A stretch of 18,977 nucleotides of DNA from an uncultured Fibrobacterales bacterium (GCA_963934255.1 CAWVXU010000052.1:1-18977); one strand, 5' to 3'. Counted from the first letter of the stretch, positions 1-15,192 are shown. The notes: generated by a model from the sequence alone, not told the origin. Made by a program: numbers and translations.

Positions 1-1074
1 TATTTCACAAATATATTCTTGCTCTTCTCTAGTCAAATGAGCACTCATCGGCAGACTCATGACTTCATTAGCCACCTTCTCTGCAACAGGGAAATCCCCT
101 AACTTGTAACCACAATACTTAAACGCTTCTTGTAAATGAAGAGGGCGAGGATAATGAACAGCAGTTGGGATTCCGTTATCTGCTAATTTCTTTTGAAGTT
201 CGTCTCTGTTTTGAACTCGGATAGTGTATTGAGCCCATACCGATGTTCTATCGCTTAATACCATTGGAGTCACAACAGAGTCCTTGAGTAATCTGGTGTA
301 ATTCTGAGCTAAGCTATCTCTTTCTTCGATTTCTTTGTCGTAATATTTTAACTTCACATTAAGTACTGCAGCTTGTAAAGTATCTAATCTTGAATTCACA
401 CCGATATGTTTATGGTGATATCTTTTTTCTTGTCCGTGATTTCTGATACTTCTAATCTTTTCAGCCAGTTCTTCATTTTGAGTAAAGATCGCACCACCAT
501 CACCATAACAACCGAGCGGTTTAGCAGGGAAAAAGCTTGTTGTCGCTAATTCAGATAAATTTCCGGCTCTTTTACCTTTATAAGTAGACCCAAAATTTTG
601 AGCCCCGTCTTCAATGACTTTAATACTGTGTTGGCTGGCTATCTTATTAATTGCATCCATATCTGAGGGCTGACCATATAAGCTTACTGATATTATTGCT
701 TTTGTTTTGGATGTGATTGCTGCTTCAATTTTCGTCACATCAATATTATAATCATCTTCATTAATATCCACAAATACAGGTATCGCCCCAACTGCGGCTA
801 TCATTTCTGCCGTGGCAATAAATGTAAATGGAGTAGTAATCACCTCATCACCTGGTTTAATATCAATTGCAAGCATGGCAATTTGCAATGCATCTGTCCC
901 ATTAGCACATGTTATCGCGTAGCTTCCCGTATACTCCGAAAGTTTCTTTTCTAACTCATGGACAGCTGGACCCATGATAAAGGCAGCCGAATCTAAAACT
1001 CCTTGAATTGCTTCATCAATCTCAGTTTTATGCTTTTGGTATTGTGCTTGTAAGTTTGCAAATTGAATTTTCAT
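1..1074 (-). CDS. wbpE: DegT/DnrJ/EryC1/StrS PLP-dependent sugar aminotransferase, WbpE/WlbC-like (3' end runs off the window)
   Basis: Not in ORF track. Manual translation from ATG at 1074: MKIQFANLQAQYQKHKTEIDEAIQGVLDSAAFIMGP...CANGTDALQIAMLAIDIKPGDEVITTPFTFIATAE...VIEDGAQNFG...TTSFFPAKPLGCYGDGGAIFT (PLP-lysine motif)...NSRLDTLQAA...TAVHYPRPLHLQEAF...MSLPMSAHL. Open to base 1; starts 2 nt after the upstream stop. Confidence 0.9.
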   Translation of the reverse strand, partial: MKIQFANLQAQYQKHKTEIDEAIQGVLDSAAFIMGPAVHELEKKLSEYTGSYAITCANGTDALQIAMLAIDIKPGDEVITTPFTFIATAEMIAAVGAIPVFVDINEDDYNIDVTKIEAAITSKTKAIISVSLYGQPSDMDAINKIASQHSIKVIEDGAQNFGSTYKGKRAGNLSELATTSFFPAKPLGCYGDGGAIFTQNEELAEKIRSIRNHGQEKRYHHKHIGVNSRLDTLQAAVLNVKLKYYDKEIEERDSLAQNYTRLLKDSVVTPMVLSDRTSVWAQYTIRVQNRDELQKKLADNGIPTAVHYPRPLHLQEAFKYCGYKLGDFPVAEKVANEVMSLPMSAHLTREEQEYICEI

Positions 1075-1076
1075 TT

Positions 1077-1652
1077 TTATCTCTTTAGTATAATTACGTC
1101 GTTGTTTATTAATTGATACTGACTTCCATCAGCGGTATCTGTCGCTTTATTTTGTCCATCAAAGTCTAATCTGTTGCCTGCAATACTGACCCAACCGATT
1201 TGTTTACCAGGTACTCCTACAACAAGTGCAAAAGGCTTCACTGGCTTGACTATCACTGTTCCAGAACCCACTAAGGCATATGTACCAATTTCATTTCCAC
1301 AAACTATTGTGGCATTGGCGCCTATTGAGCAGCCTTTTCTTAGGTTAGTTGGCTTGAATTCTTCTTTGCGCACAATAAAGCTTCTTGGGTTGATCACATT
1401 AGTGAAAACCATAGAGGGTCCAAGGAAAACATCATCTTCTACTTCAACACCTTCGTAGATAGAGACATTGTTTTGGACTTTAATGCCAGAACCCATTTTA
1501 ACATTGGGCCCGACAACACAGTTCTGTCCAAATGAACAATTTTCGCCTATGACACTACCTTGAAGTATGTGGCTAAAATGCCATACCTTGGTATTGTCAC
1601 CCAGTTGACAGTTGTCATCTACAATGGAAGTCTCATGCACAAAGAAAGACAT
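1077..1652 (-). CDS. wbpD: Hexapeptide-repeat N-acetyltransferase, WbpD/WlbB-like (191 aa)
   Basis: MSFFVHETSIVDDNCQLGDNTKVWHFSHI...CSFGQNC...KVQNNVSIYEGV...FLGPSMVFTNVINPRS...GANATIVCG. Start moved from 1748 to the ATG at 1652, which overlaps the upstream stop (TAATG). Confidence 0.9.
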   Translation of the reverse strand: MSFFVHETSIVDDNCQLGDNTKVWHFSHILQGSVIGENCSFGQNCVVGPNVKMGSGIKVQNNVSIYEGVEVEDDVFLGPSMVFTNVINPRSFIVRKEEFKPTNLRKGCSIGANATIVCGNEIGTYALVGSGTVIVKPVKPFALVVGVPGKQIGWVSIAGNRLDFDGQNKATDTADGSQYQLINNDVIILKR

Positions 1653-2686
1653 TAAAACTCCAACGGTAGAGGAACTCGTTTGTTTTCTCTTGATGACTTG
1701 TATAAAGCAAGAATCAATTCTAATGATTTTAATCCTTGCCTTCCACATACTGGAGGTCTATTACCTGTTTGAATTGCTTCGATCACGTTAGTATAATACC
1801 CTGTGTGGCCAAACCCATAGACACTTGCCGTATCATATGATGCTTCTTGAACTAATTTGTCATCATCATCATATGAATCAAAATTCCATTCTTCTACTTT
1901 ATTGACAGCTACGCCACCAATTCTAACAGTCCCCTTTTCACCTAGAATAGTAAATGAACCTTCTAAGTTTTTGGGGTAAGTTAACATGGTGACATTGAGT
2001 GTCCCAAGTGCGCCATTTCTAAATTTAAACGCAGCAACACCAGTATCTTCCCCTTCAATCTTACGCTCCATTGTCGAAGTATAACACATCACAGACTCGA
2101 CGTCTCCCACCAAATAATCAATCAGATCAACATAGTGAGATGCTTGGTTCATAAAACACCCACCGTCAAACTCCCAAGTGCCTCGCCATTTGGCTGCATC
2201 ATAATATTCTTGTGGTCTTGTCCAGAAGACATTTACTTGAACACTGTATATTTTACCAAAACGACCTTTGTCAACAGCTTTTTTTAAGGTATCAATTGTC
2301 GTGTTGAGTCTATTTTGATGTACGACATGTAATTGAACACCTTCACGATCACAAGTGTTAATGAGCTCTTTAGCCTCTTTATAATTGGTACCCATTGGTT
2401 TTTCTGTGAGTACGTGCTTACCGCTTTGAGCTACTTCAATACCATGCTTAGGGTGCATGCCACTTGGAGTACAAAGTGAAACGATTTCAATATTTTCTTG
2501 TTTAAGCATCTCTGTCAATGAAGTGAAGTAAGGTACATTGAGCTTCTCACCGTATTCTTTAGCACGATCTTCAACTACATCACAAACTGCAACAATTTCA
2601 GCTTTTTCACTATTGCCTTCAATCGCTTCCAAATGTTTAAATGCTATACGTCCACAACCTAAAATTGCAAATTTTGTTTTATTCAT
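1652..2686 (-). CDS. wbpB: Gfo/Idh/MocA NAD-dependent oxidoreductase, WbpB/WlbA-like UDP-HexNAcA 3-dehydrogenase
   Basis: GCGRIA Rossmann motif, LCTPSGMH, HVLTEKPM, VVHQNRLN, VFWTRPQEYYDAAKWRGTWEFDGGCFMNQASHYVD. ATG at 2686 has GGAG upstream and a TAATG overlap with the previous stop. Confidence 0.88.
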   Translation of the reverse strand: MNKTKFAILGCGRIAFKHLEAIEGNSEKAEIVAVCDVVEDRAKEYGEKLNVPYFTSLTEMLKQENIEIVSLCTPSGMHPKHGIEVAQSGKHVLTEKPMGTNYKEAKELINTCDREGVQLHVVHQNRLNTTIDTLKKAVDKGRFGKIYSVQVNVFWTRPQEYYDAAKWRGTWEFDGGCFMNQASHYVDLIDYLVGDVESVMCYTSTMERKIEGEDTGVAAFKFRNGALGTLNVTMLTYPKNLEGSFTILGEKGTVRIGGVAVNKVEEWNFDSYDDDDKLVQEASYDTASVYGFGHTGYYTNVIEAIQTGNRPPVCGRQGLKSLELILALYKSSRENKRVPLPLEF

Positions 2687-3957
2687 TATAATCTCCAAGT
2701 AGGGTTTTCTAAAACACCTTTTACGTCTATCAAGACTGATTGATCTTGTGTTGATATTTTATTAAAGTCTTCGCGTGATAATTCTAAAAATTGCTTGTGT
2801 GCAACTGCAACCACAAATGCGTCATATTTCTTATTTGATTCAAATGGATTTTCTTTTAATACACCGTGTGTATAATGCTTTTTGTGCTCTTCAGGATCTA
2901 CCCATGGATCATACACATCCACATTCGTACCAAACTCTTCTAATTCATTGATAACATCAACTACTTTAGTATTTCTCAAGTCAGGACAGTTTTCTTTAAA
3001 GGTGACTCCCATGACAAGGATATTGGCGTCTTTAATCTTTACGTCTGATCTAATCATGGCCTTTAAGGTGGCGTCTGCAATATATTTACCAACACCATTA
3101 TTGATTTCTCTAGCTGCGACAATCAGGTCTGGAGTATAACCAGACTCTTTGGCTTTTGATAATAAATAATAAGGATCCACTCCAATACAGTGCCCACCGA
3201 CTAATCCTGGCCTCATATTAATGAAATTCCATTTGGTGGCGGCTGCATCAATCACAGCATGAGTATCAATCCCTAGGTTTCCAAAAATGATCGCAAGTTC
3301 ATTCATCAGTGCAATATTGACATCTCTTTGTGTGTTTTCAATTACTTTCGCAGCTTCTGCAACTTTAATCGTAGGTGCTTTATGCGTACCCGCTACGATA
3401 ATGCTTTTGTACAATTCGTCCACAACTGTCGCTATCTCTGGAGTCGACCCTGCAGTGATTTTTAATATCTTGGTGAGAGTACGCTCCTTATCACCTGGAT
3501 TGATTCTTTCAGGTGAATATCCACAATAAAAACCTTCATTGAACTTCAATCCTGATACACGCTCTATTATCGGGACACACACTTCTTCAGTTACACCCGG
3601 GTAAACGGTCGATTCATAGATGACAATATCACCTTTTTGAACATACTGAGCTAAGGTCTCTGTTGACTTCTCAATAGGTGTAAGGTCAGGATGATTATTT
3701 TTATCAATGGGTGTCGGGACTGTCACAATATAAATATTTGCATCGCGTAACTCATTCAAATCACAAGTGAGCCTCAGTTGTTTGGCGCTTTGTAATTCTT
3801 CTTTATTTGTCTCTAGAGTTCGATCATATCCTGTTTTTAATTCATCAACACGCTCTGCATTAATGTCAAAACCAACAGTGTCAAACTTTTTGCCAAATTC
3901 AACAGCTAAAGGTAAACCAACGTATCCTAAACCTAAAATTGCAAGTTTCTTATCCAT
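2686..3957 (-). CDS. wbpO: UDP-N-acetylhexosamine 6-dehydrogenase, WbpO/TviB/Gna type
   Basis: GLGYVGLPLA, IVTVPTP, IYESTVYPG, GYSPERINPGDK, KVAEAAKVIENTQRDVNIA, PGLVGGHCIGVDPYYL (catalytic Cys), TFKENCPDLRNTKV. ATG at 3957 preceded by AGGGAG. Confidence 0.88.
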   Translation of the reverse strand: MDKKLAILGLGYVGLPLAVEFGKKFDTVGFDINAERVDELKTGYDRTLETNKEELQSAKQLRLTCDLNELRDANIYIVTVPTPIDKNNHPDLTPIEKSTETLAQYVQKGDIVIYESTVYPGVTEEVCVPIIERVSGLKFNEGFYCGYSPERINPGDKERTLTKILKITAGSTPEIATVVDELYKSIIVAGTHKAPTIKVAEAAKVIENTQRDVNIALMNELAIIFGNLGIDTHAVIDAAATKWNFINMRPGLVGGHCIGVDPYYLLSKAKESGYTPDLIVAAREINNGVGKYIADATLKAMIRSDVKIKDANILVMGVTFKENCPDLRNTKVVDVINELEEFGTNVDVYDPWVDPEEHKKHYTHGVLKENPFESNKKYDAFVVAVAHKQFLELSREDFNKISTQDQSVLIDVKGVLENPTWRL

Positions 3958-4801
3958 TTTTATTCTCCCTAAAGTTTCTAATTGAGTGCCTGAGAAAGAC
4001 AATTGCGATTCCTAAAAACAAGCCAAAGAATGACCCTACAATTGCCATAATTAATCTTTTGGGGCCTGATTTTTTTGTGGCAATTCTCGGCTTCTCTATC
4101 ACCTGTAATATTTTCTGACCAATTAAAATACCCTTTTTATATTCTTGTATAATAAGGTCATTTAAAGCCATTTTCAAGTCATTTGAAGCGGTTTCTTTTA
4201 ATTTTCTCGTATAATATTTTATGGCTTCTTGATTTTGTTTTATTTCGTTACTTAATATTCTTTCAACCACAGTCTGTTTAAACAAATTTAACCAGTTGTA
4301 AGAAACTTTAGGGTCATCCGTAACACAAGTAATGATAAATTCGTCTGATGTCTCATCTGAACCAAAGCTAATAGAAATATGATTGTCTTTTAATTTTCTG
4401 ACAGCATCAAATCCTGTAATAGCTTTGCCACCCAATAATAATTGATTGCTTGTTGTATCAAATTCTGCCTCAGGATATAGTTCTTGTAAAAAACCATCCT
4501 TCTCAATAAATTCATAATACAAATCAATGGATCCGATAATGGGCTTATGCCTTGCTACATCAGAAGATACTCCAGCACCGACTCCCAATAAAGAACCCAC
4601 TCCACCTAGGTTGAGCTTTGCTTTATTTGACATGATTTTATAAACAATCCTCGAAGTATATTCATCCGGTTTAATTTTGGCGTAGGTACAAGTGATTACA
4701 ACTACAACCAGCCAAACGCCAAAAACGATTAGTTTGCTCTTCCAAATGTGAGCTATTAACTCAAAAACATTGATCTCTTCGCTTTTTAATTCTTGTTTCA
4801 T
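3950..4801 (-). CDS. wzz: Wzz-type polysaccharide co-polymerase / chain-length determinant (no kinase domain)
   Basis: N-terminal EEINVFELIAHIWKSK plus TM helix; coiled-coil-like middle; C-terminal proline motif KKSGPKR plus Gly-rich TM (IVGSFFGLFLGIAIVF). 283 aa with no Walker motifs. Confidence 0.85.
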   Translation of the reverse strand: MKQELKSEEINVFELIAHIWKSKLIVFGVWLVVVVITCTYAKIKPDEYTSRIVYKIMSNKAKLNLGGVGSLLGVGAGVSSDVARHKPIIGSIDLYYEFIEKDGFLQELYPEAEFDTTSNQLLLGGKAITGFDAVRKLKDNHISISFGSDETSDEFIITCVTDDPKVSYNWLNLFKQTVVERILSNEIKQNQEAIKYYTRKLKETASNDLKMALNDLIIQEYKKGILIGQKILQVIEKPRIATKKSGPKRLIMAIVGSFFGLFLGIAIVFLRHSIRNFRENKNG

Positions 4802-7048
4802 CTAATTAACCTTATCATCGATAATGACAATTGTCAGAATTATTGAAGCGATAGCCCCCATAGTCGATAGTGTTCCTTGCATAATTTCAGACCAACTAAT
4901 TGGTTCATCTTCTGGTTTATAACTTACTATAATCTTTGATCCTGGGGTAATAGGTTGCTCCATGTCCTCAGCTTTTACTTTAGTTCCATTTGCCAAAACA
5001 ACTAGCACACGGTCTTCGTCTCCATATCTAGTATAGCCGCCCGTATGGATGATATAATCATCATATTCAAAGTTCGGCTTCCACAAAACATCTCCGGGTG
5101 AAACTATTTCACCTAAAATTTGTACCGTATGTTGTGTTTCCTCAAGTACGATACTATCTCCTTGTTTCAAAGCTATTTGAGACCCACTTCCTGATTGTAG
5201 CGCCTTCTCAAAATCAATATAGATGGGGTAGGATAAATTATCTCTTTTTCTAAACAAGCGCGCTGCAGACCATTGGATATTTTCGCTGTATTGTGCAACT
5301 CTATTTACAAACTCTAATAATTTTTCACCTTTATACTGCAATGGATAATCGGCAGGGTTTAATACTGCAGAACCTCGAAGCCTCACTAGCTCTGGCTTAT
5401 AATACCCAGGGTCCTGAACAAGATGAATACGATCAAAAGGTTTTAATTGAATGTTTGATACTGAGTCTAAAAAATTCTCCGGACTGATCTTGATATTAAT
5501 AATCTCAACATTTGTCGTTTTGGTCATCCTCTGTAATACTATGCTTCCATCTAACCACTCCTTCGAAGCTCCCCCTGCTTTAAAAAAAAGGGTCTTGACA
5601 CTCATACCTGGAATATAATTGACTACTGTATCATTTTTTACAGCACCACCGATACTTACAGTGAACTTGAGTGTAGTATCAGCTTGACTTGGAATAAATA
5701 TACTATCGAGTGGTTCCATTCGAATATCTAAGTCATTACCCTCTGATTTCAGCGTGTATGATGTGTCAATGTTGTATCGATATACTTGTATGCCGGCCTT
5801 ATTGGCACCCCTACGCAGCCCCCCGGCTTGATTTATAACGTCTATTAATTTTAGCTCAGGAGTATAAGATACTTGTGTTTCAAAATGAATTTCACCCGAG
5901 ATTTTCACTATCTTTTCTAACGTTTTTGGGTTTGATTTGATCAAGATTCCATCTCCATTCATTAATAGAAGAGTGTCTTGGTCAGATATAATCAGATCAA
6001 GTTGGTCATAATCTAATTGATTAAAGTTTGATAGACCTTCTCTTCTTTTTATTGAATAAAACTTACTTGCTTCAGGTTTGACCCCCTGAGCTAGCTTGAT
6101 TAGGTCGTTCAAGGTTTCAGCTTTTTTTAATTCATAAATTGCAGGAACCTGGATAGATCCCTCAATTGTCACTAACTTTTCTGCAGCCGGAATATGAATA
6201 ATATCCCCGTCTCGTAAAGTGTGGATCTTCGGCATCTTACCTTCAAACAGATAATCATATAAATCAATTGTATATTTCTTCCTGCCGCGTTTAAGTTGAA
6301 TATTTCTGACAGATCCAACCTCATTGGGGCCACCAGCAAAATACAAGGCATTAAGAATTGAACTATTTCCTTGGATTACATATGCCGAAGGTTGTGCAGC
6401 ATTTCCAAGAACATAAACTTTTATAGAGCTTAATTCTTTAACCTGTAAAGATATTTGAGTCATCCCAAACTTAATTCCAGGGTTTGATATGGATAGCTTT
6501 TTGGTGATTAGTTTCTGAGCTCGACTCAGAGTGAGACCATTTAAACTTACTCGCCCGACTTCACTGACTAAAACATTCCCGCTTCTATCAATGACTAAGG
6601 TTTCTTCAACTTCCGTCCCACCCCAAATATTTAGGACTAATTTATCTCCAAACTTCAACGGATAATTAGGATCTACTTGATTAGAGGTTGCAGCAAATAA
6701 CTCTGGGTTTGCCAATTTAAACAAGGATGAAGAATATCTTCTTATCTCCATCATCGAATCATTTTGTAGATAATTAAATGCAGAGTCGCTCTCTCTATTT
6801 GCTTGTACCGAATCCAATAATTCCAGCTCAACTTCATTCTCAGTTCCAGCTCCATCAATGTTTTTAGCACTTTTTTTGTTTTCATAGTGTTTTCTTAGTT
6901 TCACTAGTTTTTCTGGAGACATGTTCTTAATGTCTGACAAATTATTCAGCGCACCCAATCCCTTTAAATCAGAAGCTGTTACCTGTGAAAATATAGTCAT
7001 GCAAAGACTCATAGTAAGTACAGCTATAATCGTATAAATTCTTAACAT
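4802..7048 (-). CDS. Large polysaccharide export protein (Poly_export domain plus multiple SLBB repeats; Wza/KpsD/OtnA-like OPX family)
   Basis: Hydrophobic N-terminal signal; YPLKFGDKLVLNIWG...IDRSGNVLVSEVGRVSLNGLTL; repeated V-x-I-x-G-x-V / AGG / GD-x-I-x-I-P SLBB units; C-terminal amphipathic helix WSEIMQGTLSTMGAIASII. GGAGAG RBS. Confidence 0.88.
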   Translation of the reverse strand: MLRIYTIIAVLTMSLCMTIFSQVTASDLKGLGALNNLSDIKNMSPEKLVKLRKHYENKKSAKNIDGAGTENEVELELLDSVQANRESDSAFNYLQNDSMMEIRRYSSSLFKLANPELFAATSNQVDPNYPLKFGDKLVLNIWGGTEVEETLVIDRSGNVLVSEVGRVSLNGLTLSRAQKLITKKLSISNPGIKFGMTQISLQVKELSSIKVYVLGNAAQPSAYVIQGNSSILNALYFAGGPNEVGSVRNIQLKRGRKKYTIDLYDYLFEGKMPKIHTLRDGDIIHIPAAEKLVTIEGSIQVPAIYELKKAETLNDLIKLAQGVKPEASKFYSIKRREGLSNFNQLDYDQLDLIISDQDTLLLMNGDGILIKSNPKTLEKIVKISGEIHFETQVSYTPELKLIDVINQAGGLRRGANKAGIQVYRYNIDTSYTLKSEGNDLDIRMEPLDSIFIPSQADTTLKFTVSIGGAVKNDTVVNYIPGMSVKTLFFKAGGASKEWLDGSIVLQRMTKTTNVEIINIKISPENFLDSVSNIQLKPFDRIHLVQDPGYYKPELVRLRGSAVLNPADYPLQYKGEKLLEFVNRVAQYSENIQWSAARLFRKRDNLSYPIYIDFEKALQSGSGSQIALKQGDSIVLEETQHTVQILGEIVSPGDVLWKPNFEYDDYIIHTGGYTRYGDEDRVLVVLANGTKVKAEDMEQPITPGSKIIVSYKPEDEPISWSEIMQGTLSTMGAIASIILTIVIIDDKVN

Positions 7049-8175
7049 TTACTCTCCAGAAATTTAATTATTCTATTGGAACTTTTTCCATCGCCATAAG
7101 GGCTATGTACTTTTGACATTGAGTTATACCGATCTTTTTCGTCTATAAGAGCACTACACTCCAATACAATCTTATCAAAATCAGGACCTACTAATTTGAC
7201 AGTCCCCGCTTTAAGAGCTTCTGGTCTTTCAGTAATGTTTCTCATAACAATGACTGGTTTACCGAGTGCGGGTGCCTCTTCTTGAATGCCGCCACTATCA
7301 GTTAATACAAAATGTGATTGATTCATGAGATACACAAATTCTTCATAGCCTAAAGAATCAATTAAATAAACATTTGAAATTTTCTGGAGAATTTGATTCA
7401 CCGGTATTTTTACATTTGGATTTAAATGAACGGGATAAACAAAGTCTGCATCAGTATATTTTTCTGCTAAAACTTTCACGGCTTGGCAAATGTTATCAAA
7501 GCCATTACCAAAATTTTCTCTTCTATGACTCGTGATTAAAATAACCTTTCGATTTTTATTAATCTGATATCCTGCTGAGGCAATTGTTGATTGGACTTTA
7601 TTAGAATGAAGGGTATTAGTTTCTGTCTTATGCAGAACTGAATACAAAGCATCAATCACTGTATTGCCAGTCACTAAAATGTTTTCTAAAGGATGCCCCT
7701 CTTTAATAAGGTTATTCGCCGCTTCTTGGGTCGGAGCAAAATGATAATCTGCAATAACATCCGTTAATTGTCGATTAGCCTCTTCAGGCCATGGAGATTG
7801 CAGGTTATATGTACGAAGACCCGCTTCTACATGACCCACTTTGACTTTTTGATAAAAGGCAGATAAGCTCACCGCAAAAGAAGTAGCCGTATCTCCATGT
7901 ACAAGGACAAGGTCTGGTTTAAAAGATTGAAGAATGTCACGCATCCCCAAGAGGACTTTTGCAGTGATGTCAAACAAGTCTTGACTCTCTTGCATAATAT
8001 TCAAATCATAATCGGGTTTAATCTCAAATAAATCAAGCACTTGGTCCAACATCTCACGGTGTTGACCTGTTACTGCTACCTTTGATTCAATCGTTGTGCT
8101 TTTAGCCAACTCTTTCACCAATGGCGCCATTTTAATGGCTTCAGGACGAGTCCCGAATACAGTCAATACTCTCAT
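7042..8175 (-). CDS. wecB: UDP-N-acetylglucosamine 2-epimerase (non-hydrolysing)
   Basis: VFGTRPEAIKMAPLV, VTGQHREMLDQVL, VLVHGDT, GHVEAGLRT, PWPEEANR, TGNTVIDAL, TSHRREN, LTDSGGIQEEAP, TERPE, PYGDGKSS. ATG 8175 preferred over TTG 8184. Confidence 0.93.
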   Translation of the reverse strand: MRVLTVFGTRPEAIKMAPLVKELAKSTTIESKVAVTGQHREMLDQVLDLFEIKPDYDLNIMQESQDLFDITAKVLLGMRDILQSFKPDLVLVHGDTATSFAVSLSAFYQKVKVGHVEAGLRTYNLQSPWPEEANRQLTDVIADYHFAPTQEAANNLIKEGHPLENILVTGNTVIDALYSVLHKTETNTLHSNKVQSTIASAGYQINKNRKVILITSHRRENFGNGFDNICQAVKVLAEKYTDADFVYPVHLNPNVKIPVNQILQKISNVYLIDSLGYEEFVYLMNQSHFVLTDSGGIQEEAPALGKPVIVMRNITERPEALKAGTVKLVGPDFDKIVLECSALIDEKDRYNSMSKVHSPYGDGKSSNRIIKFLESKC

Positions 8176-8194
8176 TTTACCCAATCATTGTAAC

Positions 8195-8221
8195 AAGGAC
8201 AACCTTTGCAGGGTCCTTTTT
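8195..8221. terminator. Hairpin (possible intrinsic terminator or structured leader) between the GT remnant and wecB
   Basis: Minus strand reads AAGGAC-CCT-GCAA-AGG-TT-GTCCTT (bulged stem, GNRA tetraloop); on the plus strand the stem runs into a T tract. Confidence 0.4.
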
Positions 8222-8281
8222 CTAACAAGAAAAATAAAAAACTTCCCTGCATATAACAAAAATATTTGTCTTATATGGACT

Positions 8282-8584
8282 CTAATCGGGCTCTTTGTGT
8301 CCTATGTCACTCTTTGTACTTTCGACCAAGGCGCTATACCTCTCCACACACCAAGACGCATCCTCTTCTATTGTGTCAATTTTTGGTAGTTTTGCCTTCA
8401 TTTCTGATAATATCTGTGGATTTTGAGCGATTTTACTCAATTTTAACGCTAATTCAGTCGAATTATTGACTTCGAAAAGTTCTCCTCCCAATTCTTGATT
8501 CACTGTTTCAGGCAAAGCTCCTACATGAGAGGCTATTACCGGCACTCCTTGCATCATTGCTTGACGCTCCGCAATAAAACACAT
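8282..8584 (-). pseudogene. C-terminal fragment of a GT-B family 4 (Glycos_transf_1) glycosyltransferase
   Basis: AMMQGVPVIASHVGALPETV...GELFEVNNSTELALKL...IEEDASWCVERYSAL matches the GT4 tail (EAmaxGxPVIaSxvGalpE). Only 100 aa, with an in-frame TAA nine codons upstream of the ATG. The N-terminal domain and most of the ExxxxxxxE motif are missing. Confidence 0.75.
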
Positions 8585-8630
8585 CTGATCGATTGAATCG
8601 AGGGTGGTTTATTTGAATTCATTTAATTAA

Positions 8631-8661
8631 TAAGGAGCTATTTATGTCAAAAGCGCGTTAG
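8631..8661 (+). other. Strong Shine-Dalgarno plus 5-codon micro-ORF (MSKAR*)
   Basis: TAAGGAG 8631-8637, 6-nt spacer, ATG TCA AAA GCG CGT TAG 8644-8661. Confidence 0.3.
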
Positions 8662-8767
8662 TTTCCACTATTTCATTAAAAATAAGGAAAAACTCTAAGG
8701 AATTTGGCATAATAATCCGAATCTATAAAAAGTAGATCGAGTTTTAGGTTACGGGGAAGGTAGCAAT

Positions 8768-9808
8768 ATGATTCATGTTGAAGATTGGACAGACAAGAGG
8801 GTTCTCATTACTGGAGTCTGCGGGACTGTCGGCGGGGAATTATACCGCCAACTCAAAGCTGTAGGACCCAAAAGTATTATTGGGGTTGATAATAACGAGA
8901 GCGAACTCTTCTTTTTATCTGAAGATGCACGGGGTGACGAGAACGTACACTTCTTTTTGGGGGATGTTCGAGACTCAGATGCCATGAACCGCTATATGCG
9001 CGGAGTTGACATTGTTTTACATACTGCTGCCCTGAAACACGTTTTTTTATGCGAAGAAGCTCCACGAGAGTCTGTTCAGACTAATATCATGGGTGTTCAA
9101 AACATTGTAGATGCCGCCACTCTTAATGATGTTGAACGCGTTATTTTCACCTCTTCAGATAAGGCTGTGAACCCTACCAATGTCATGGGGACGTCAAAGC
9201 TCATGGGTGAAAGACTTATGACTGCAGCCAACTCTATGGGAAACAAAAAAGGACCGATTTTCTCTTCTACCCGATTTGGAAATGTTTTGGGTTCACGGGG
9301 CTCGGTAATTCCACTTTTCGTTAAGCAGATTCAAGAAAAAGGCCGTATCACTCTTACGCACGAGGAAATGACTCGTTTTATCATGTCATTAGAAGAAGCT
9401 GTCTCTCTTGTGATGGATTCGGTTTTTATGGCCAAAGGTGGCGAAGTCTTTGTTACCAAGATGCCTGTTCTGAGAATCCTTGACCTCGCTCATGCGATGA
9501 TTGATATTTTAGCGCCTCGCTTTGGACTCAATGTCGAGGATGTTAAAATTGACGTTGTCGGAGTGAAGCCTGGTGAAAAATTATACGAAGAACTGATGAA
9601 TCAAGAAGAGGTTCGAAGAACTATGGAGCTTGACCAATACTTTGTAGTGACTCCTGCTTTTCAGGCTCTTTATAGAAGTGTAGATTATTCTTATCCGGAA
9701 GAAAATGAATATCCTCCCATTCAAGAGCCTTATAATTCTTCCAATCACAAACTCATGACCCAAGAAGAAATCAAAAACTTTCTTCTTGAAAACAAACTTT
9801 TGGACTAG
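8768..9808 (+). CDS. Soluble UDP-N-acetylhexosamine 4,6-dehydratase family SDR (Polysacc_synt_2; CapD/PglF/FnlA-like, MxxxK type)
   Basis: ITGVCGTVG, GDVRD, HTAALKHV, FTSSDKAVNPTNVMGTSKL, TRFGNVLGSRGSVIPLF, MTRFIM, GVKPGEKLYEEL. No N-terminal TM region. GGGGAAGG RBS. Confidence 0.88.
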   Translation: MIHVEDWTDKRVLITGVCGTVGGELYRQLKAVGPKSIIGVDNNESELFFLSEDARGDENVHFFLGDVRDSDAMNRYMRGVDIVLHTAALKHVFLCEEAPRESVQTNIMGVQNIVDAATLNDVERVIFTSSDKAVNPTNVMGTSKLMGERLMTAANSMGNKKGPIFSSTRFGNVLGSRGSVIPLFVKQIQEKGRITLTHEEMTRFIMSLEEAVSLVMDSVFMAKGGEVFVTKMPVLRILDLAHAMIDILAPRFGLNVEDVKIDVVGVKPGEKLYEELMNQEEVRRTMELDQYFVVTPAFQALYRSVDYSYPEENEYPPIQEPYNSSNHKLMTQEEIKNFLLENKLLD

Positions 9809-9816
9809 GAGTCATT

Positions 9817-10971
9817 ATGAGAGTTTTAATTTTAGGCGGTGATGGCTATTTGGGTTGGCCAACTGCTATGCACATGGCAAAACTTGGCCACGATGTCATG
9901 GTGGTAGATAATTATCTGCGCCGAAATATTGCACGGGATACTTCTTCTGAAGCTCTGATGGCTACACCCAATTTAGATAAACGCGCTGAAATTTTCGCTG
10001 CCGAAATGGGTTACACTATCCAGGTAGAAATTGGTGATTGTTGCGACATGCGTTTTATGGAAAGAATCTTCAAAGACTTCCAGCCTGAATCATTGATTCA
10101 CTATGCAGAACAACCTTCAGCGCCTTATTCTATGATGGGATATAAGGAAGCTTCTCTTACTTTTGATAACAACCTTAAAGCTACTTTTAATGTTATCTGG
10201 GCTGTTACTGAATTTGCACCAAAATGTCATATTGTAAAACTTGGCACTATGGGTGAGTATGGTTGCCCTAATATTGATATTGAAGAAGGTTGGATCGACA
10301 TTGAACACAAAGGTCGTTCTCAAAAATTCCTTTACCCTCGCCAAGCTGGATCATTATATCACACTACCAAAGTTTTAGATACCGACCTGCTTTGGTTTTA
10401 TGTTCGCACTTATGGTCTTGCGGTGACAGATTTGATGCAAGGACCTGTCTATGGTTTTGTCACTCCCGAAACTCAAATCAACGACGCACTATTGCCCAAC
10501 TTTCACTACGATGATATCTTTGGTACATTAGTGAATCGTTTCTTGGTTCAAGCTGTTGCTGGTGTTCCTCTTACTGTTTATGGACAAGGAGGTCAAACTC
10601 GGGGGTACCTGAATTTGAATGATACACTTCAGTGTGTTCAACTTGCTGTTGAAAAACCAACAGTGGCGGGTGACCTACGTATACTCAATCAATTTACCGA
10701 AACATTCTCCGTCAATGACTTCGCAGATAGAGTTGTTTCTGTAGGGAATCAAATGGGCCTAGGTGTTGAGAAAAAGTCTATTATTAATCCAAGAAAAGAA
10801 CCCGAGGATCATTACTATAACCCAGCACATAGTGGGCTTGTAGATTTGGGTCTCAAACCAACTCTTCTCACAGATGACATCTTAGGTGAAATGTTGACTA
10901 AGGTTGTCGAGTACAAACACTTGATTCAAAAAGACATGATTTTGCCGCGTGTTCGTTGGGATGATAAATAA
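9817..10971 (+). CDS. sqdB: UDP-sulfoquinovose synthase (SqdB/SQD1/Agl3 family)
   Basis: VLILGGDGYLGWPTA, HYAEQPSAPYSM, HIVKLGTMGEYG, PNIDIEEG, GSLYHTTK, TDLMQGPVYG, YDDIFGTLVNRF, PLTVYGQGGQTRGY, NQFTETFSV, NPRKE..HYYN. AGGAG RBS 8 nt after the upstream gene. Confidence 0.9.
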   Translation: MRVLILGGDGYLGWPTAMHMAKLGHDVMVVDNYLRRNIARDTSSEALMATPNLDKRAEIFAAEMGYTIQVEIGDCCDMRFMERIFKDFQPESLIHYAEQPSAPYSMMGYKEASLTFDNNLKATFNVIWAVTEFAPKCHIVKLGTMGEYGCPNIDIEEGWIDIEHKGRSQKFLYPRQAGSLYHTTKVLDTDLLWFYVRTYGLAVTDLMQGPVYGFVTPETQINDALLPNFHYDDIFGTLVNRFLVQAVAGVPLTVYGQGGQTRGYLNLNDTLQCVQLAVEKPTVAGDLRILNQFTETFSVNDFADRVVSVGNQMGLGVEKKSIINPRKEPEDHYYNPAHSGLVDLGLKPTLLTDDILGEMLTKVVEYKHLIQKDMILPRVRWDDK

Positions 10972-10995
10972 TATTTTTCACTTTTGGGTGAAAAC

Positions 10996-11032
10996 AAAAA
11001 AGGCTGAGTTCAAGTTGAACTCAGCCTTTTTT
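10996..11032. terminator. Bidirectional rho-independent terminator
   Basis: Perfect 18-bp inverted repeat AAAAAAGGCTGAGTTCAA-G-TTGAACTCAGCCTTTTTT with A6/T6 ends, between the convergent sqdB and 1373-aa genes. Confidence 0.92.
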
Positions 11033-11070
11033 ATTTTCAAATTAAGATTTTTTATTGGCAAACTTATGAA

Positions 11071-14000
11071 CTAGCCCGCCGTAGAGGGTAACTTTTGAAA
11101 TTGAGGATTCAAACTTTCAAATCTACTTTTAATTTGTTCCATCAAATGAATCACATCTTGTCTAGAATTCTTAGGGGCACGTTGATAAATCGCCACAGCT
11201 TCAGAATCTAAATAGTCAGCAGGCAAATGACAGCCCGTACTTAAATCAAATACTTTTTCACGGGAAGTAACATCAAAATTCTTATACCACCAGGGGTGAA
11301 GATTGTAAAGATCTGTTTTGGAGCGACGATTATTTTCAGGTTTTAAACCCCAGCGGTTTTCTTTAATTCTATACATAAATTCAACTTCTGAGGTTACTAC
11401 ACCTTGCCAACCGCGCTCACCTGCTTTAATCCAAAACTCCCAATCTTCACGGGTAAACATTTCACTATAACCATTGATATCATCATACATGGACTTCCTG
11501 TAGATCGCTGAAACTGGAGCCAGACAGACTGTCAACATATTGATAAAATCTTGTTTGAAATTATATTGAAGTTGGTTGACTGTAGGCCCGAATTGTAAAG
11601 TGTATGGAGTTATCCAGCCCACATCAGGATTATCAGCAAAGGTTTTAACCGCTGTCTCCAAATAGGTACTAGCAATTTGATCATCTGAATCAAGTATGCA
11701 AATGTACTCACCACGACAGGATTCAACTCCACGATTTCTCGTGTACGTCTTGCCTTTATTTTCATGTGTCAAAAGGGTAATCTTGTGATTAGGATACTGA
11801 GCTATTAGCTTTTTAGTGACTTCATAGGAGTCATCTGTAGACCCATCATTAACAATGATTAATTCCCAATTACTATAGTTCTGATTGATCACACTTGTAA
11901 TGGTATCTTCCATGTAGATACCTTGGTTGTATAGGGGAACTATGATGCTGACTAGTGGCGTCTGTTGGAAATTATGACGAGGCGGGACTTTTTCTACAAG
12001 AAGTTTTCTATAAAGATGAGCGACATTTTTGGATTGGCCTACGAGCGAAAAGAAACTAAGACAAAGGCTTCTTGCCTCCATGACATTTCCTTGAATTAAC
12101 TTAAGCAATGCTAATGTATAAAAGTGATATTCAAATAAATTGAGATTGGCAACCTTTTGAGTTTGCTTGACTTCATTCATCAATTCAGATACTCGGCCTA
12201 AATGATGATCTAATTCCTTAGCCAATTCTACTGATGAAAAGGGGTTGGACTTCACAAAACGTTCAATGTATTTCCACTTTACTTCAGAACTTTCTAAGAA
12301 GGTTCCTTCTTGGTTTTGATGTTCTAAGTTATTGTCGTGAGTAAGATATAAGCCAAGCTCTTCAGCGACATGATAGAGAGGGTACTTCTCTGCAATTCTT
12401 AACCAAAAATCATAATCACCTACCACAGTGTATTTGTCACTATAATAACCAATATCATCGTGAATACTCGCACGCCACATTGGTTGAGGGCCCACTTCAC
12501 ATTTTCGAAGTAGATTCATGTAACTATAGGGTAACCACTCATGCTTACGCAAGATATTTGCATCTTCGAATTTGCAATCTACATTATCTGTAATGATAGA
12601 ATTTCCGTATGAAACGGCACATTCAGGATGGTTATCTAATGCAGTTGCAAGTACTTCAAGACAATCAAACCGATGACGATCATCAGTATTTGCATTGGTG
12701 ATGTATTGACCTTGTGCTAATTTAATCCCACGATTCCATGCTGTGTAGAGCTTTTCACGATGAGTGTGAATATAGGTGATATTGTCATATTTTTCTAAAA
12801 ATTCACGAACTATGGCATCTTCATTTTCTGGTGAACCTGAATTGATGACCATAATTTCAATGTCTTGAGCAATGGATTGAGCTTCTAAGTCTTCTAGGCA
12901 TCCTCTGATGAATTTTTCTGAGGCATAGGTGGAGACTAGAGCTGTGACTTTGTAGTTTTTGCGGATAGCACGTTGGATGAGGCCTTCGATGTCTTGATGT
13001 TCAATATCAGTATTCACGAAAGAAGGTTGAGAGTGAATCGTGTATTGGGATTCCAGTGTTTTTAATCGTTCTGCTATATCCTCAAATAAAGGATCTATTG
13101 TATAAATCTCTCTTAAGAATTCTATTTCATAGCTTGGTAATTGCAATTCTTTTGACAAATTAGACTTTCCCAATAATTCAAATATTTGACGTTTAGAATT
13201 TGGGCTAATAACCTCTATAGCTCCAGCTTTTATAGGCGAAACCTTTTCACCTTGTAACTGACTCAATAAGAGTTGAATATCCTGTCGATGTGGTGAAATG
13301 TCAAGAGCACCTTTCAATAAATCTATGCTGCTTTGAGATTTACCCAATTGATTAAAAACTTGAGCCAGTAAGACATAAGCATCAATATGATCCACCTCAG
13401 ATCGGACAACCTTCATTAATGCCTGGTGAGCTTCACCATATTGCCCCAAGTGATACATTCTCTCAATATCTGTCAGGTCGGCCACATTTCCATTTTCCAA
13501 TTGAATAGAAGTTGGAGAGTCATTTGTTTTAATAATAGACTTAGGATTTATTTGGATTTGATGTTTTTTGTTAACAACACTTCCTTGAATTTGCTTTCCT
13601 AATTCAATGGCTTGATGATATTTTGGGTGTAATTTAAGTGCATATTCAAGTAAACTTAATGCTTGGATTTTATTAGACTTTTCAAATTCAACTCTAGCCC
13701 TAAGGTAATAGACCTCTGCAAAATAAGGCCAGATTTGGTCTAATTTATCCAAAGCTTTAGAGACTCGCCCATAATCCATCAATTGAAGAAATACTTGTGC
13801 CTCCAATAATTTCAGTTCAATATGTTCAGGCCATTGCTTAAGATAATTTTCTAGTTGACTTTGGACTTGACCAGCATTACCATCTTTAACTAAAGTTTTT
13901 AGTTTAAATATTTCACTTCCCAATTCAACCAAATTCAATGTCATGGGTTCTATTGCTTTTGGCATGACGAGCTTCGTCAAATAACTTTGACACATTGCTT

Positions 14001-15192
14001 CTGAAACTGGAAATTTTAATTTTGTATTACAAGCCTTCTTCAGCAAGCTCTCCCTGTGCTCTGGACGAAAGAGTGCTTCCCAGAAATATACAATTCCATA
14101 TTGGTGACTATTTTGAGTGCTAGCAAATACAGCTTGTAAAAAATCGCTTACCAAAGGTTTTGGTAATTCAGAGATTCTTTGGTGTACTTCTAGTAACTGT
14201 GTTTGGTTTTCTTCCCAACTAAGTTGACTTGATTCAACAAAATCTTCATAGAACGGGCCTTGAATCTGTGAAACAATAAATGGAACTAGTTTTTCTAAGG
14301 TGTTATAGTCTCGTAAATTTACATCGAATTCAATTTTTTTACTTAAGAGTTCTGAAGCATAACTATAAAGCTCAACTAAATTGAGTGAATCCATCACACC
14401 ACTTGAGATAAAATCATCCCCTAATTGAGGAGTATAATTGACCCCCCTTTGAAGCGCTACTTTTGAAATAAAATTCCCCAGTGATTCAAAAAGCTCTTCT
14501 TTTTTATTTAAGCTACTTCTACTCAATAATTCTAAATCATTCAGCACAAGTGAAGCGTAAGCCTGACTTTCAACATTTGGATCAAAGTCAACATCATATA
14601 CTCTTGGTGTTGAACGTAAATTCAAATTTGTTAGCCGACCTAATGGCTCCAAAAACAGATTGCTATATGTTTCTTTGATATGTAATTCATCTTCTTCTAG
14701 GTATTGAGAGGGCAGTAACCCACCTTGATCATACAGGTTTAATAATGGATCTAAGGTTAAGATTCCATTTTCAAGACACCAAATTTTCATCTCAGAATAA
14801 AAATGCTGTGATATTTTAATAATATCTTTTGTTTGATAAGGGGGAATGTTTACATTAGTCGCCTGTTGTATACTTATAGCCCATATGAAATTTCCAAATT
14901 GATTGAGCTCAAGAAATAACTCTTTGTAACTTGCACACAATTCTTCGAACGCTTTTTCAAGTCCTAAATGTGAAGATTTTCTTAGCATATGATGAATATC
15001 ATGGTTACCCACAAAAAGCACTTTCCAGGATTGTTCTTTCTCAAATTCATCTTTAATAAGTTGTGCCCCAGGATGATTGACCTTAAACCAATCCACAATG
15101 AAAGCGCCTACCCATTTCACCTTTACTGGCTCTTGAGAACACTGAACTCCTTTTTGAAAAAGGGAAACATGACTATTACCTATGATAAGCAT
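11071..15192 (-). CDS. Multidomain protein: SGNH-like / acyl carrier (PP-binding) / unnamed domain / TPR / GT2 / GT2 (1373 aa)
   Basis: aa1-185 IIGNSHV...VGNHD...DELH; aa~230-310 DDFISSGVMDSLNLVEL...DYNTLEKLVPFI; TPR-like helices aa~430-650; GT2 from aa748 (KVTALVSTYASEKFIRGCLEDL...INSGSPENE...AWNRGI...NANTDDRH...DYDFWLR); GT2 from aa~1079 (PLVSIIVPLYNQG...IIVNDGSTDDS...RNRGV...ILDSDD...EDWEFWIK). Confidence 0.88.
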   Translation of the reverse strand: MLIIGNSHVSLFQKGVQCSQEPVKVKWVGAFIVDWFKVNHPGAQLIKDEFEKEQSWKVLFVGNHDIHHMLRKSSHLGLEKAFEELCASYKELFLELNQFGNFIWAISIQQATNVNIPPYQTKDIIKISQHFYSEMKIWCLENGILTLDPLLNLYDQGGLLPSQYLEEDELHIKETYSNLFLEPLGRLTNLNLRSTPRVYDVDFDPNVESQAYASLVLNDLELLSRSSLNKKEELFESLGNFISKVALQRGVNYTPQLGDDFISSGVMDSLNLVELYSYASELLSKKIEFDVNLRDYNTLEKLVPFIVSQIQGPFYEDFVESSQLSWEENQTQLLEVHQRISELPKPLVSDFLQAVFASTQNSHQYGIVYFWEALFRPEHRESLLKKACNTKLKFPVSEAMCQSYLTKLVMPKAIEPMTLNLVELGSEIFKLKTLVKDGNAGQVQSQLENYLKQWPEHIELKLLEAQVFLQLMDYGRVSKALDKLDQIWPYFAEVYYLRARVEFEKSNKIQALSLLEYALKLHPKYHQAIELGKQIQGSVVNKKHQIQINPKSIIKTNDSPTSIQLENGNVADLTDIERMYHLGQYGEAHQALMKVVRSEVDHIDAYVLLAQVFNQLGKSQSSIDLLKGALDISPHRQDIQLLLSQLQGEKVSPIKAGAIEVISPNSKRQIFELLGKSNLSKELQLPSYEIEFLREIYTIDPLFEDIAERLKTLESQYTIHSQPSFVNTDIEHQDIEGLIQRAIRKNYKVTALVSTYASEKFIRGCLEDLEAQSIAQDIEIMVINSGSPENEDAIVREFLEKYDNITYIHTHREKLYTAWNRGIKLAQGQYITNANTDDRHRFDCLEVLATALDNHPECAVSYGNSIITDNVDCKFEDANILRKHEWLPYSYMNLLRKCEVGPQPMWRASIHDDIGYYSDKYTVVGDYDFWLRIAEKYPLYHVAEELGLYLTHDNNLEHQNQEGTFLESSEVKWKYIERFVKSNPFSSVELAKELDHHLGRVSELMNEVKQTQKVANLNLFEYHFYTLALLKLIQGNVMEARSLCLSFFSLVGQSKNVAHLYRKLLVEKVPPRHNFQQTPLVSIIVPLYNQGIYMEDTITSVINQNYSNWELIIVNDGSTDDSYEVTKKLIAQYPNHKITLLTHENKGKTYTRNRGVESCRGEYICILDSDDQIASTYLETAVKTFADNPDVGWITPYTLQFGPTVNQLQYNFKQDFINMLTVCLAPVSAIYRKSMYDDINGYSEMFTREDWEFWIKAGERGWQGVVTSEVEFMYRIKENRWGLKPENNRRSKTDLYNLHPWWYKNFDVTSREKVFDLSTGCHLPADYLDSEAVAIYQRAPKNSRQDVIHLMEQIKSRFESLNPQFQKLPSTAG
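14263..14505 (-). other. Embedded acyl carrier (phosphopantetheine-binding) domain; predicted modified Ser269 at 14386-14388
   Basis: DD-F-xxx-G-V-M-D-S-L-xx-V-E-L motif followed about 25 aa later by DYNTLEKLVPFI, the typical helix-IV pattern. Confidence 0.8.

Follow-up and report, generated by a model that had tools for sequence, protein, structure and literature searches.

An open reading frame (ORF) in an 18,977-nucleotide stretch of an uncultured Fibrobacterales bacterium (GCA_963934255.1 CAWVXU010000052.1:1-18977; hereafter "the window", always meaning the stretch at its full length) encodes a 1373-residue protein, P0001, which starts with an SGNH hydrolase-like domain, a carrier domain, and a helical cap, directly downstream of an adenylating enzyme that resembles fatty acyl-AMP ligases (FAALs). 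Both this module and the cassette it forms with its upstream partner are real, conserved, and unnamed, and the module is spread across several bacterial phyla. We tentatively propose that they constitute a minimal and previously undescribed adenylation–carrier–SGNH line, in which an SGNH domain with His in place of the usual Asn may replace the condensation (C) domain of nonribosomal peptide synthetases (NRPS) and, in the cytoplasm, (amino)acylate the nonulosonic acid of protein glycans, variants in these phyla having perhaps dropped the carrier and changed donor.

A conserved SGNH–carrier–cap module

A preliminary description of the window, made from the sequence alone, had read the start of P0001 as an SGNH domain fused to a carrier and had placed four motifs there, all of which the ORF translation carries at those places: GNSH at residues 5–8, VGNHD at 61–65, DELH at 168–171, and GVMDSL at 265–270, 94 residues after His171. 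When residues 1–310 were shuffled, 0 of 20,000 shuffles gave all three motifs of this chance test in their windows. The fold was modeled with AlphaFold2 on residues 1–420 (pLDDT 93.6), and residues 1–190 matched SGNH structures in VIA with Z of 14.7–15.2 and root-mean-square deviations (rmsd) of 2.8–2.9 over 171–172 residues, among them 3p94 (Z 14.7, rmsd 2.9 over 171 residues). Forty-nine of the 50 VIA matches listed cover this N-terminal domain, and its structural matches include sialate O-acetylesterases and TesA. The block I Ser after strand 1 and the block V D-x-x-H of the superfamily are both present. The model confirms residues 1–190 as a predicted member of the SGNH hydrolase-like superfamily with its flavodoxin-like fold, as had been anticipated. 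Neither the NRPS C-domain fold nor the alpha/beta-hydrolase fold of thioesterase (TE) domains was found, and the likeness to these domains is functional only. At the level of sequence profiles, the SGNH profile gave nothing significant against PDB sequences (best E 0.17), the window's SGNH domain had no Pfam match, and residues 1–310 on their own passed no Pfam or NCBIfam family. PF13472 (Lipase_GDSL_2) matched weakly in 24 of 29 aligned members and exceeded its cut-off in 1 of 44; the SASA family matched 0 of the 29, and neither its Gln-Ser block I nor its HQGE block III was found.

Residue conservation was assessed by aligning the window's sequence with 47 of 63 homologues (short fragments excluded; 48 sequences in all, mean pairwise identity 35%). 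Ser7, Asp168, and His171, the triad proposed at the outset, are each kept in 47 of the 48, and Gly29, assigned to block II by position, occurs in all 47 sequences with a residue there. The reading of VGNHD as block III holds for Gly62 and Asp65 (the latter in 46 of 48) but not for its Asn: over 66 sequences, block III is conserved as Gly62, His64, and Asp65, with Asn63 in only 16 and, instead of the canonical G-x-N-D Asn, His at that register in 63 (45 in the 48-sequence alignment). The G-x-N-D spacing, together with a global hhalign comparison in which canonical GDSL proteins from this genome aligned weakly (probability 1.5%), suggests that His64 replaces the oxyanion Asn. Asn6, directly before Ser7, is kept in 65 of 66 sequences. 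SGNH families lacking the block III Asn do exist, including SASA with its Gln beside Ser (PMC9487903, accessible text), and Asn6 may by analogy serve as the SASA Gln does.

Look-alikes of residues 1–195 in the ESM Atlas belong to unnamed clusters of ~200-residue proteins, mostly viral (Nucleocytoviricota, Uroviricota; score 0.95–0.96), which we treat as leads only; in one such cluster, 41% of the members carry Lipase_GDSL. Residues 1–410 gave no usable named cluster there.

The carrier assignment was likewise upheld. Residues 229–314 form a helical bundle that matches the carrier PltL (2n5i; Z 10.7, rmsd 2.0 over 85 residues), its D-S-L lying where helix II starts (residue 269 in the model). 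Profile searches also gave matches to solved acyl carrier proteins (ACPs; best E 0.0011). Of 11 homologous carrier segments, 2 scored above the PF00550 cut-off, but the window's own segment had no match to this family; a phosphopantetheinyl transferase (PF01648) is present in the window's genome. SGNH domain and carrier do share a chain, but the fusion is not the direct one first described, as ~38 residues of linker and helix separate them. Nor is the unit a didomain: both folds are there, but conservation continues through the cap to about residue 410, and several homologues stop just after it. On this pattern, the conserved unit is the ~410 residues of SGNH, carrier, and cap, predicted as one well-defined unit (pTM 0.87). 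Two further proteins, P0059 and P0060, have carrier and cap without SGNH, P0060 being fused to a WcbI domain; both are possibly truncated gene calls.

HMMER searches over 1.8 billion representatives returned 63 matches (33 at E ≤ 1e-30), most of them spanning residues 1–307 at the N-terminus of proteins of ~270–3400 residues, and a word-based homologue search among shorter proteins gave 2 matches in 2700 candidates. The SGNH–carrier–cap order is fixed across ~45 clusters of <50% identity, and everything downstream is shuffled: the 44 homologues scanned continue with TPRs, one to three GT2, GT4, methyltransferases, or nothing, and one (L035) is a complete stand-alone module of 449 residues. The distribution is patchy: of 296 genomes from the window's phylum, only 4 had a profile match at E ≤ 1e-20. 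Other carriers of the module include Desulfobacterales, Geomonas, Syntrophorhabdus, Nitrospirota, Sericytochromatia, and Polyangiaceae; the cultured Geomonas paludis has the full cassette (L013), and the cultured Citrifermentans bemidjiense has the module (P0068), both being non-pathogens. In L010 (genome G283, 1-13487), an open frame of >4400 residues begins with the module, and the Maf-like and adenylating domains are fused upstream, like in the window. Our literature search, in which most subscription journals lay outside coverage, returned no paper describing an SGNH–carrier–cap module.

The adenylating enzyme and the carrier motif are lost together

To relate the module to its upstream partner, we collected 46 loci (the window plus 3, 14, and 28) and retained 35 after setting aside 5 duplicates and 6 loci cut before the carrier; L003 (genome G001), a distant 5'-cut homologue, was also excluded, and the pattern search behind the collection favors relatives of its 15-sequence alignment. 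An orthologous adenylating gene, 47–55% identical to the window's and hereafter called the loader, lies directly upstream of the module in 25 of the 35. D-S-L is kept in all 25, whereas D-S is kept in none of the 10 loci without the gene (NTL, RSV, RSI, NSA, NSL, NSP, SST), i.e., in each of the 35 loci, loader and D-S-L either both occur or are both missing. This loss of D-S with the loader ties the carrier to the adenylating enzyme. When the carrier columns are left out and the tree is rooted at its midpoint, the loader-less loci fall into two separate groups (no formal clade test), which points to at least two independent losses; we do not rely on the Fisher p of 5e-9 for the split, since the loci are kin. 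In 4 of the 10 loader-less genomes, searched whole with the loader of L014 (completeness not given), no orthologue was found; the best matches there reached 97 bits, with 25–32% identity on long matches.

In the window, the loader is the C-terminal domain of P0002, an ORF open at the contig end that also contains two Maf-like domains, and no contig continuing its open 5' end was found in the same genome. The best solved relatives of the loader are FAALs, and it scores 248 bits as FAAL-like versus 75 as DltA-like; the 248 bits compare with a cut-off of 600 for PRK09192 and lie below all NCBIfam cut-offs shown. The full FAAL-specific insertion is missing, the loader having 34 residues between aligned blocks where 3pbk has 58 (~24 fewer), a shortened stretch that we take to be the place of the insertion. 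In the same alignment to 3pbk, the loader keeps the CoA-blocking Trp, Met, and Phe and the FAAL-specific helix of the E. coli FAAL, which makes it probably carrier-directed (blocking residues of the CoA pocket according to the accessible text of PMC8460268). Its pocket motifs across 23 orthologues are HDMGL[IV]A, NC[SA]EP, and [CS][YW]A[LM]AE, compared with HDMGLVG, GAEP, and YGLAE in solved FAALs. Without the insertion, and with Ala or Cys at three pocket glycines, the substrate is probably small (a short acid or amino acid); that the pocket is narrower and the acid small is only weakly suggested by these residues. The Cys of the loader's NCSEP presumably resembles Cys268 of DltA; D-Ala was considered, and a small acid is all that we claim. 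For DltA Cys268 itself, the reference is the accessible part of PMC8972799.

Nonulosonate genes around the module

The most constant neighbor of the module is a Maf/CstII-like gene, found upstream in 31 of 35 loci. The orthologue from L014 shows the Maf catalytic fold (its model matches Magnetospirillum Maf, 5mu5, with Z 14.3 over 205 residues) and a GNGPS-type motif, and scores 48 bits against PF01973 (cut-off 34.6); the family profile also matches the CstII sialyltransferase at E 0.014. NeuB and/or a cytidylyltransferase lie within the fetched flank of 16 of the 35 loci, and flagellin or FlaF is found in 8. The window's own genome has 7 flagellin-family matches and, on contig C56, a NeuB/cytidylyltransferase island. 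A scan of the window's 12 proteins and of 44 homologues at E ≤ 1e-5 found no C domain, ketosynthase, or TE domain, leaving the SGNH domain as the only evident off-loader.

A few observations concern these neighbors individually. The second Maf-like copy of the window, besides its altered GNGPS, is without the HFY motif and may be inactive or altered. The C56 island (L054, 446-17765) holds NeuB, two cytidylyltransferases, a DUF4910/M28 gene, a carbamoyltransferase, and a PEP-utilizer/GATase/NTP-transferase/methyltransferase/APS-kinase set; we assume that this last set resembles the O-methyl phosphoramidate pathway, and that the DUF4910 gene is presumably comparable to Cj1295.

The double GT2 is a recent passenger

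P0001 was first described as a double-GT2 protein, and the GT2 pair was considered as the module's defining partner. This was rejected, since the downstream parts vary and a 99%-identical allele encodes the pair in a separate protein of 805 residues. This protein, found in the 90% cluster of P0001, is 99% identical to residues 571–1373 and has its own start. Two sister contigs of 46.7 and 34.9 kb (two runs, one study) match positions 1-13481 and 4769-13481 of the window at >99%, and both break exactly at 13481, where 26–29 kb of other DNA follow. The fused 1373-residue form comes from three sources, and its frame is open across the join; none of the contigs listed spans the join with 31 letters to either side (one side reaches 30), so strain mixing may still underlie the fusion. 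The TPR–GT2–GT2 part of the window's protein is a recent, separable passenger fusion. Position 13481 looks like a recent swap point inside a glycosylation island, with TPR–GT2–GT2 as a stand-alone gene in the sister strain.

The window itself is an entire contig (C52) of a 2.67-Mb, 92% complete genome; a search for 16S gave none. The sequencing runs that contain it are marine metagenomes, and no RNA data were found among the runs listed; the plasmid and phage collections had no match to the window, and Rfam had 0 matches in it. Table 1 gives the layout of the module gene and its upstream partner. Elsewhere in the window, positions 4-8184 (-) encode WecB, Wza/SLBB, Wzz, a nucleotide-sugar dehydrogenase, a Gfo/Idh oxidoreductase, a hexapeptide acetyltransferase, and a DegT aminotransferase, a gene set that we take to resemble a 2,3-diacetamido-uronic acid pathway. 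A 100-residue ORF at 8282-8584 (-) corresponds to only the C-terminal piece of a GT4 glycosyltransferase and is possibly a remnant, and 8768-10971 (+) carries two genes that converge on the module gene, one for a PseB-like dehydratase and the other UDP-sulfoquinovose synthase-like (428 bits, below the cut-off of 575).

Table 1 Features of the module gene and its upstream partner in the window.
Feature	Position	Strand	Basis or remark
Whole ORF P0001, 1373 aa	11071..15192	-	SGNH - carrier - helical cap - TPR - TPR - GT2 - GT2
SGNH-fold domain, aa 1-190	14623..15192	-	AlphaFold2, VIA, conservation
Ser7 codon, predicted nucleophile	15172..15174	-	kept in 47/48; end of strand 1 in model
Asp168-Glu-Leu-His171, predicted acid and base	14680..14691	-	each kept in 47/48
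Carrier domain, aa 229-314	14251..14508	-	VIA, ACP profile matches
Ser269 of D-S-L, predicted phosphopantetheine site	14386-14388	-	motif position
Conserved helical cap, aa 315-410, DF..A..RI..YG...W.AL..FP	13963..14250	-	alignment, model helices
First TPR block, ~aa 431-529	13606..13902	-	family scan
Fusion point, aa 571	13480..13482	-	sister-allele breakpoint; 805-aa stand-alone protein starts here
Second TPR block, aa 579-646	13255..13458	-	family scan
GT2 domain 1, ~aa 748-930	12403..12951	-	family scan
GT2 domain 2, ~aa 1082-1280	11353..11949	-	family scan
FAAL-like adenylating domain, C-terminal 511 aa of P0002	15192..16727	-	stop overlaps module ATG (TAATG)
Maf/CstII-like domain, second copy in P0002	16760..17525	-	GAEEL in place of GNGPS
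Maf/CstII-like domain, first copy in P0002	18339..18977	-	cut by contig end

A proposed acyl relay and its alternatives

Building on the observed domains, folds, conservation, gene order, and co-loss, we infer a chemistry and an acceptor, and consider it on balance probable that an adenylated acid is loaded onto Ser269, passes to Ser7, and from there reaches a sugar destined for a protein glycan built in the cytoplasm; this sugar is probably a nonulosonate, i.e., a surface sugar akin to sialic acid, or the CMP derivative of one. The upstream FAAL-like enzyme would adenylate the acid and load phosphopantetheinyl-Ser269, a step to which the co-loss lends genetic support. Ser7, activated by His171 and Asp168, would then attack the thioester to give acyl-Ser7, as the fold and the invariant residues suggest, with a non-standard oxyanion hole made of Gly29 and probably Asn6 and His64. 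Gene context points to transfer of the acyl group onto a sugar hydroxyl, less likely an amine, of a nonulosonate handled by the neighboring Maf/CstII-like transferase, and flagellin would be the likeliest target among cytoplasmically built protein glycans. In loader-less lineages, the SGNH domain has probably moved to a diffusible thioester donor. The off-loading from a carrier envisaged in the preliminary description is upheld in part: both folds, the triad, and a dedicated loader that co-occurs with D-S-L speak for it, and neither a wrong fold nor an unconserved triad, named there as refuting outcomes, was observed, but the triad also persists where the carrier motif, the loader, or the carrier as a whole has gone.

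Several observations weigh against this relay. The 35 loci do not count as 35 independent cases, since their split into 25 and 10 reflects only about two events in evolution. All 10 loader-less loci retain the triad together with every one of the 12 SGNH residues tracked, and the triad likewise persists in P0046, P0050, and P0062, from which the carrier is deleted, which indicates that the SGNH domain is under selection and useful without a donor in cis. Judged by this conservation, SGNH activity does not appear to depend on a cis carrier, and its retention fits either a switch of donor to acyl-CoA or a hydrolase role. Ser269 survives in 8 of the 10 loader-less loci, where the carrier is barely more diverged than the SGNH domain (42% vs 47%), so the carrier may also be structural. 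As for the acceptor, 19 of 35 loci have no NeuB or cytidylyltransferase in the fetched DNA, in many cases owing to short contigs; in the window, neither NeuB nor flagellin lies next to the module, whose neighbors are polysaccharide export and sugar genes, and the NeuB island sits on a separate contig, C56, that may not adjoin C52. Finally, the fold alone cannot separate a transferase from a hydrolase, and most of the top structural matches are esterases.

In the main alternative, which we consider unlikely but serious, the SGNH domain would hydrolyze rather than transfer, acting on nonulosonates as an O-acyl esterase (comparable to SASA or to the esterase half of NeuA) or clearing the carrier as an editing thioesterase, while another enzyme of the island (WbqC-like or GNAT) passes on the acyl group. 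A hydrolase would account for the triad being kept without the donor system in the 10 loci and three carrier-less homologues, and would agree with the sialate O-acetylesterases and TesA among the structural matches and with the occurrence of WbqC in several loci. There are parallels as well, as NeuA joins an esterase with CMP-sialic acid synthesis (PMC8319020, accessible text) and the invariant Asn before Ser recalls the inverted Gln-Ser oxyanion hole of SASA (PMC9487903, accessible text). However, no alternative transferase is constant across the loci, whereas 25 of 35 have the loader gene right next to the module, and a hydrolase paired with a dedicated ATP-consuming loader would run a futile cycle unless it only edited; editing in turn leaves the retention after loader loss unexplained, and no match to SASA was obtained in any of the 29 members.

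The same carrier-less and carrier-degenerate forms, which retain every catalytic residue, could instead point to an O-acyltransferase that modifies sugars and, like CASD1 with its acetyl-CoA, relies on a diffusible donor in every case, with carrier and loader serving some other modification and the fusion acting as scaffolding. Islands of this kind freely fuse unrelated domains, and P0059 and P0060, perhaps truncated gene calls, have carrier and cap apart from SGNH; but the domain order fixed across ~45 clusters of <50% identity and the prediction of the three domains as one unit (pTM 0.87) make this distinctly improbable. We give slightly less credence still to a relay that is real but has another acceptor, i.e., a neutral sugar of a GT2/GT4-made chain, a lipid-linked polysaccharide repeat, or a protein side chain. 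GT2 or GT4 fused in many homologues, the Wzz- and Wza-like export genes in the window's cluster, and L013 and several other loci without NeuB in the fetched flank would suit such an acceptor, but the GT fusions vary or are absent (as in the stand-alone L035), the GT2 pair of P0001 was joined to it recently and can be separated from it, and the Maf/CstII-like gene is the most constant neighbor (31 of 35).

Bacterial nonulosonates bear varied acyl and aminoacyl groups, and many of the enzymes adding them are described as not identified in the accessible text of PMC3068675. The present family provides a soluble two-protein candidate with named catalytic residues for nonulosonate acylation. If the carrier-fed relay is true, the SGNH domain would take its acyl group straight from a tethered phosphopantetheine arm, extending carrier logic to glycan tailoring, and the system could become useful for synthesizing acylated analogues of sialic acid. 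Variants with a dead carrier, or with none, open the question of the donor to direct testing.

Comparison with known systems

Esterases also occur in nonulosonate pathways, where the NeuA esterase domain and the SASA/NanS sialate O-acetylesterases are found. The NeuA esterase domain is itself of the SGNH type. All of these are hydrolases without a carrier, unlike the proposed module, and SASA, which likewise is without the block III Asn and has an amide residue next to Ser (PMC9487903, accessible text), combines Gln-Ser with HQGE, whereas the module combines Asn-Ser with G-x-H-D. Closer in proposed chemistry and acceptor is CASD1, which acylates CMP-sialic acid from acetyl-CoA in a ping-pong reaction via acyl-Ser (PMC8319020, accessible text): an SGNH-type Ser-His-Asp triad, a thioester donor, an acyl-Ser, and a nonulosonate acceptor would be common to both. 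CASD1, however, is a eukaryotic multi-membrane protein that draws on acetyl-CoA and lacks both a carrier and an adenylating partner. A GSCFA/SGNH protein also participates in O-acetylation in a detoxin-type pathway (bioRxiv 2025.06.17.660182, accessible text).

On the loader side, FAAL–ACP systems share the CoA-blocking Trp, Met, and Phe, the helix, and translational coupling of loader to carrier. The loader differs in being shorter at the insertion, in its altered pocket glycines, and in feeding an SGNH domain within a glycosylation island, whereas typical bacterial FAALs are, according to the accessible text of PMC8460268, always in a polyketide synthase or NRPS context. Carrier and ligase genes in flagellin glycosylation islands have been suggested to acylate the glycan (PMC4875605), and acylated and aminoacylated pseudaminic acid on flagellin as well as acylated derivatives in Campylobacter are on record (PMC3068675), in both cases in the accessible text. 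The ACPs of those islands are stand-alone, and in the accessible part of PMC4875605 no transferase is identified and no SGNH–carrier fusion described.

By analogy, the module appears to work most like the Dlt pathway, minus its MBOAT. In that pathway, an adenylating enzyme loads a carrier, and an SGNH serine enzyme forms an acyl-Ser and acylates a glycopolymer, DltD receiving the carrier-derived D-Ala (PMC12148441, accessible text). A loader, a carrier, an SGNH acyl-Ser, and glycan acylation are common to Dlt (DltA-DltC-DltB/DltX-DltD) or MBOAT–SGNH systems and the proposed module. In Dlt and MBOAT–SGNH systems, however, the SGNH domain lies outside the membrane and is fed via MBOAT and an acyl-Tyr shuttle. 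Neither an MBOAT partner nor an extracytoplasmic SGNH domain was found here: no MBOAT was present among the 12 window proteins scanned (the homologous loci were not searched specifically for it), and P0001 has no signal peptide and no membrane helix (peak 19-residue hydropathy 1.11), with strand 1 starting at Met1. The module would thus differ from Dlt in joining SGNH and carrier in one predicted cytoplasmic chain without membrane helices, and in being served by a loader that is FAAL-like rather than DltA-like.

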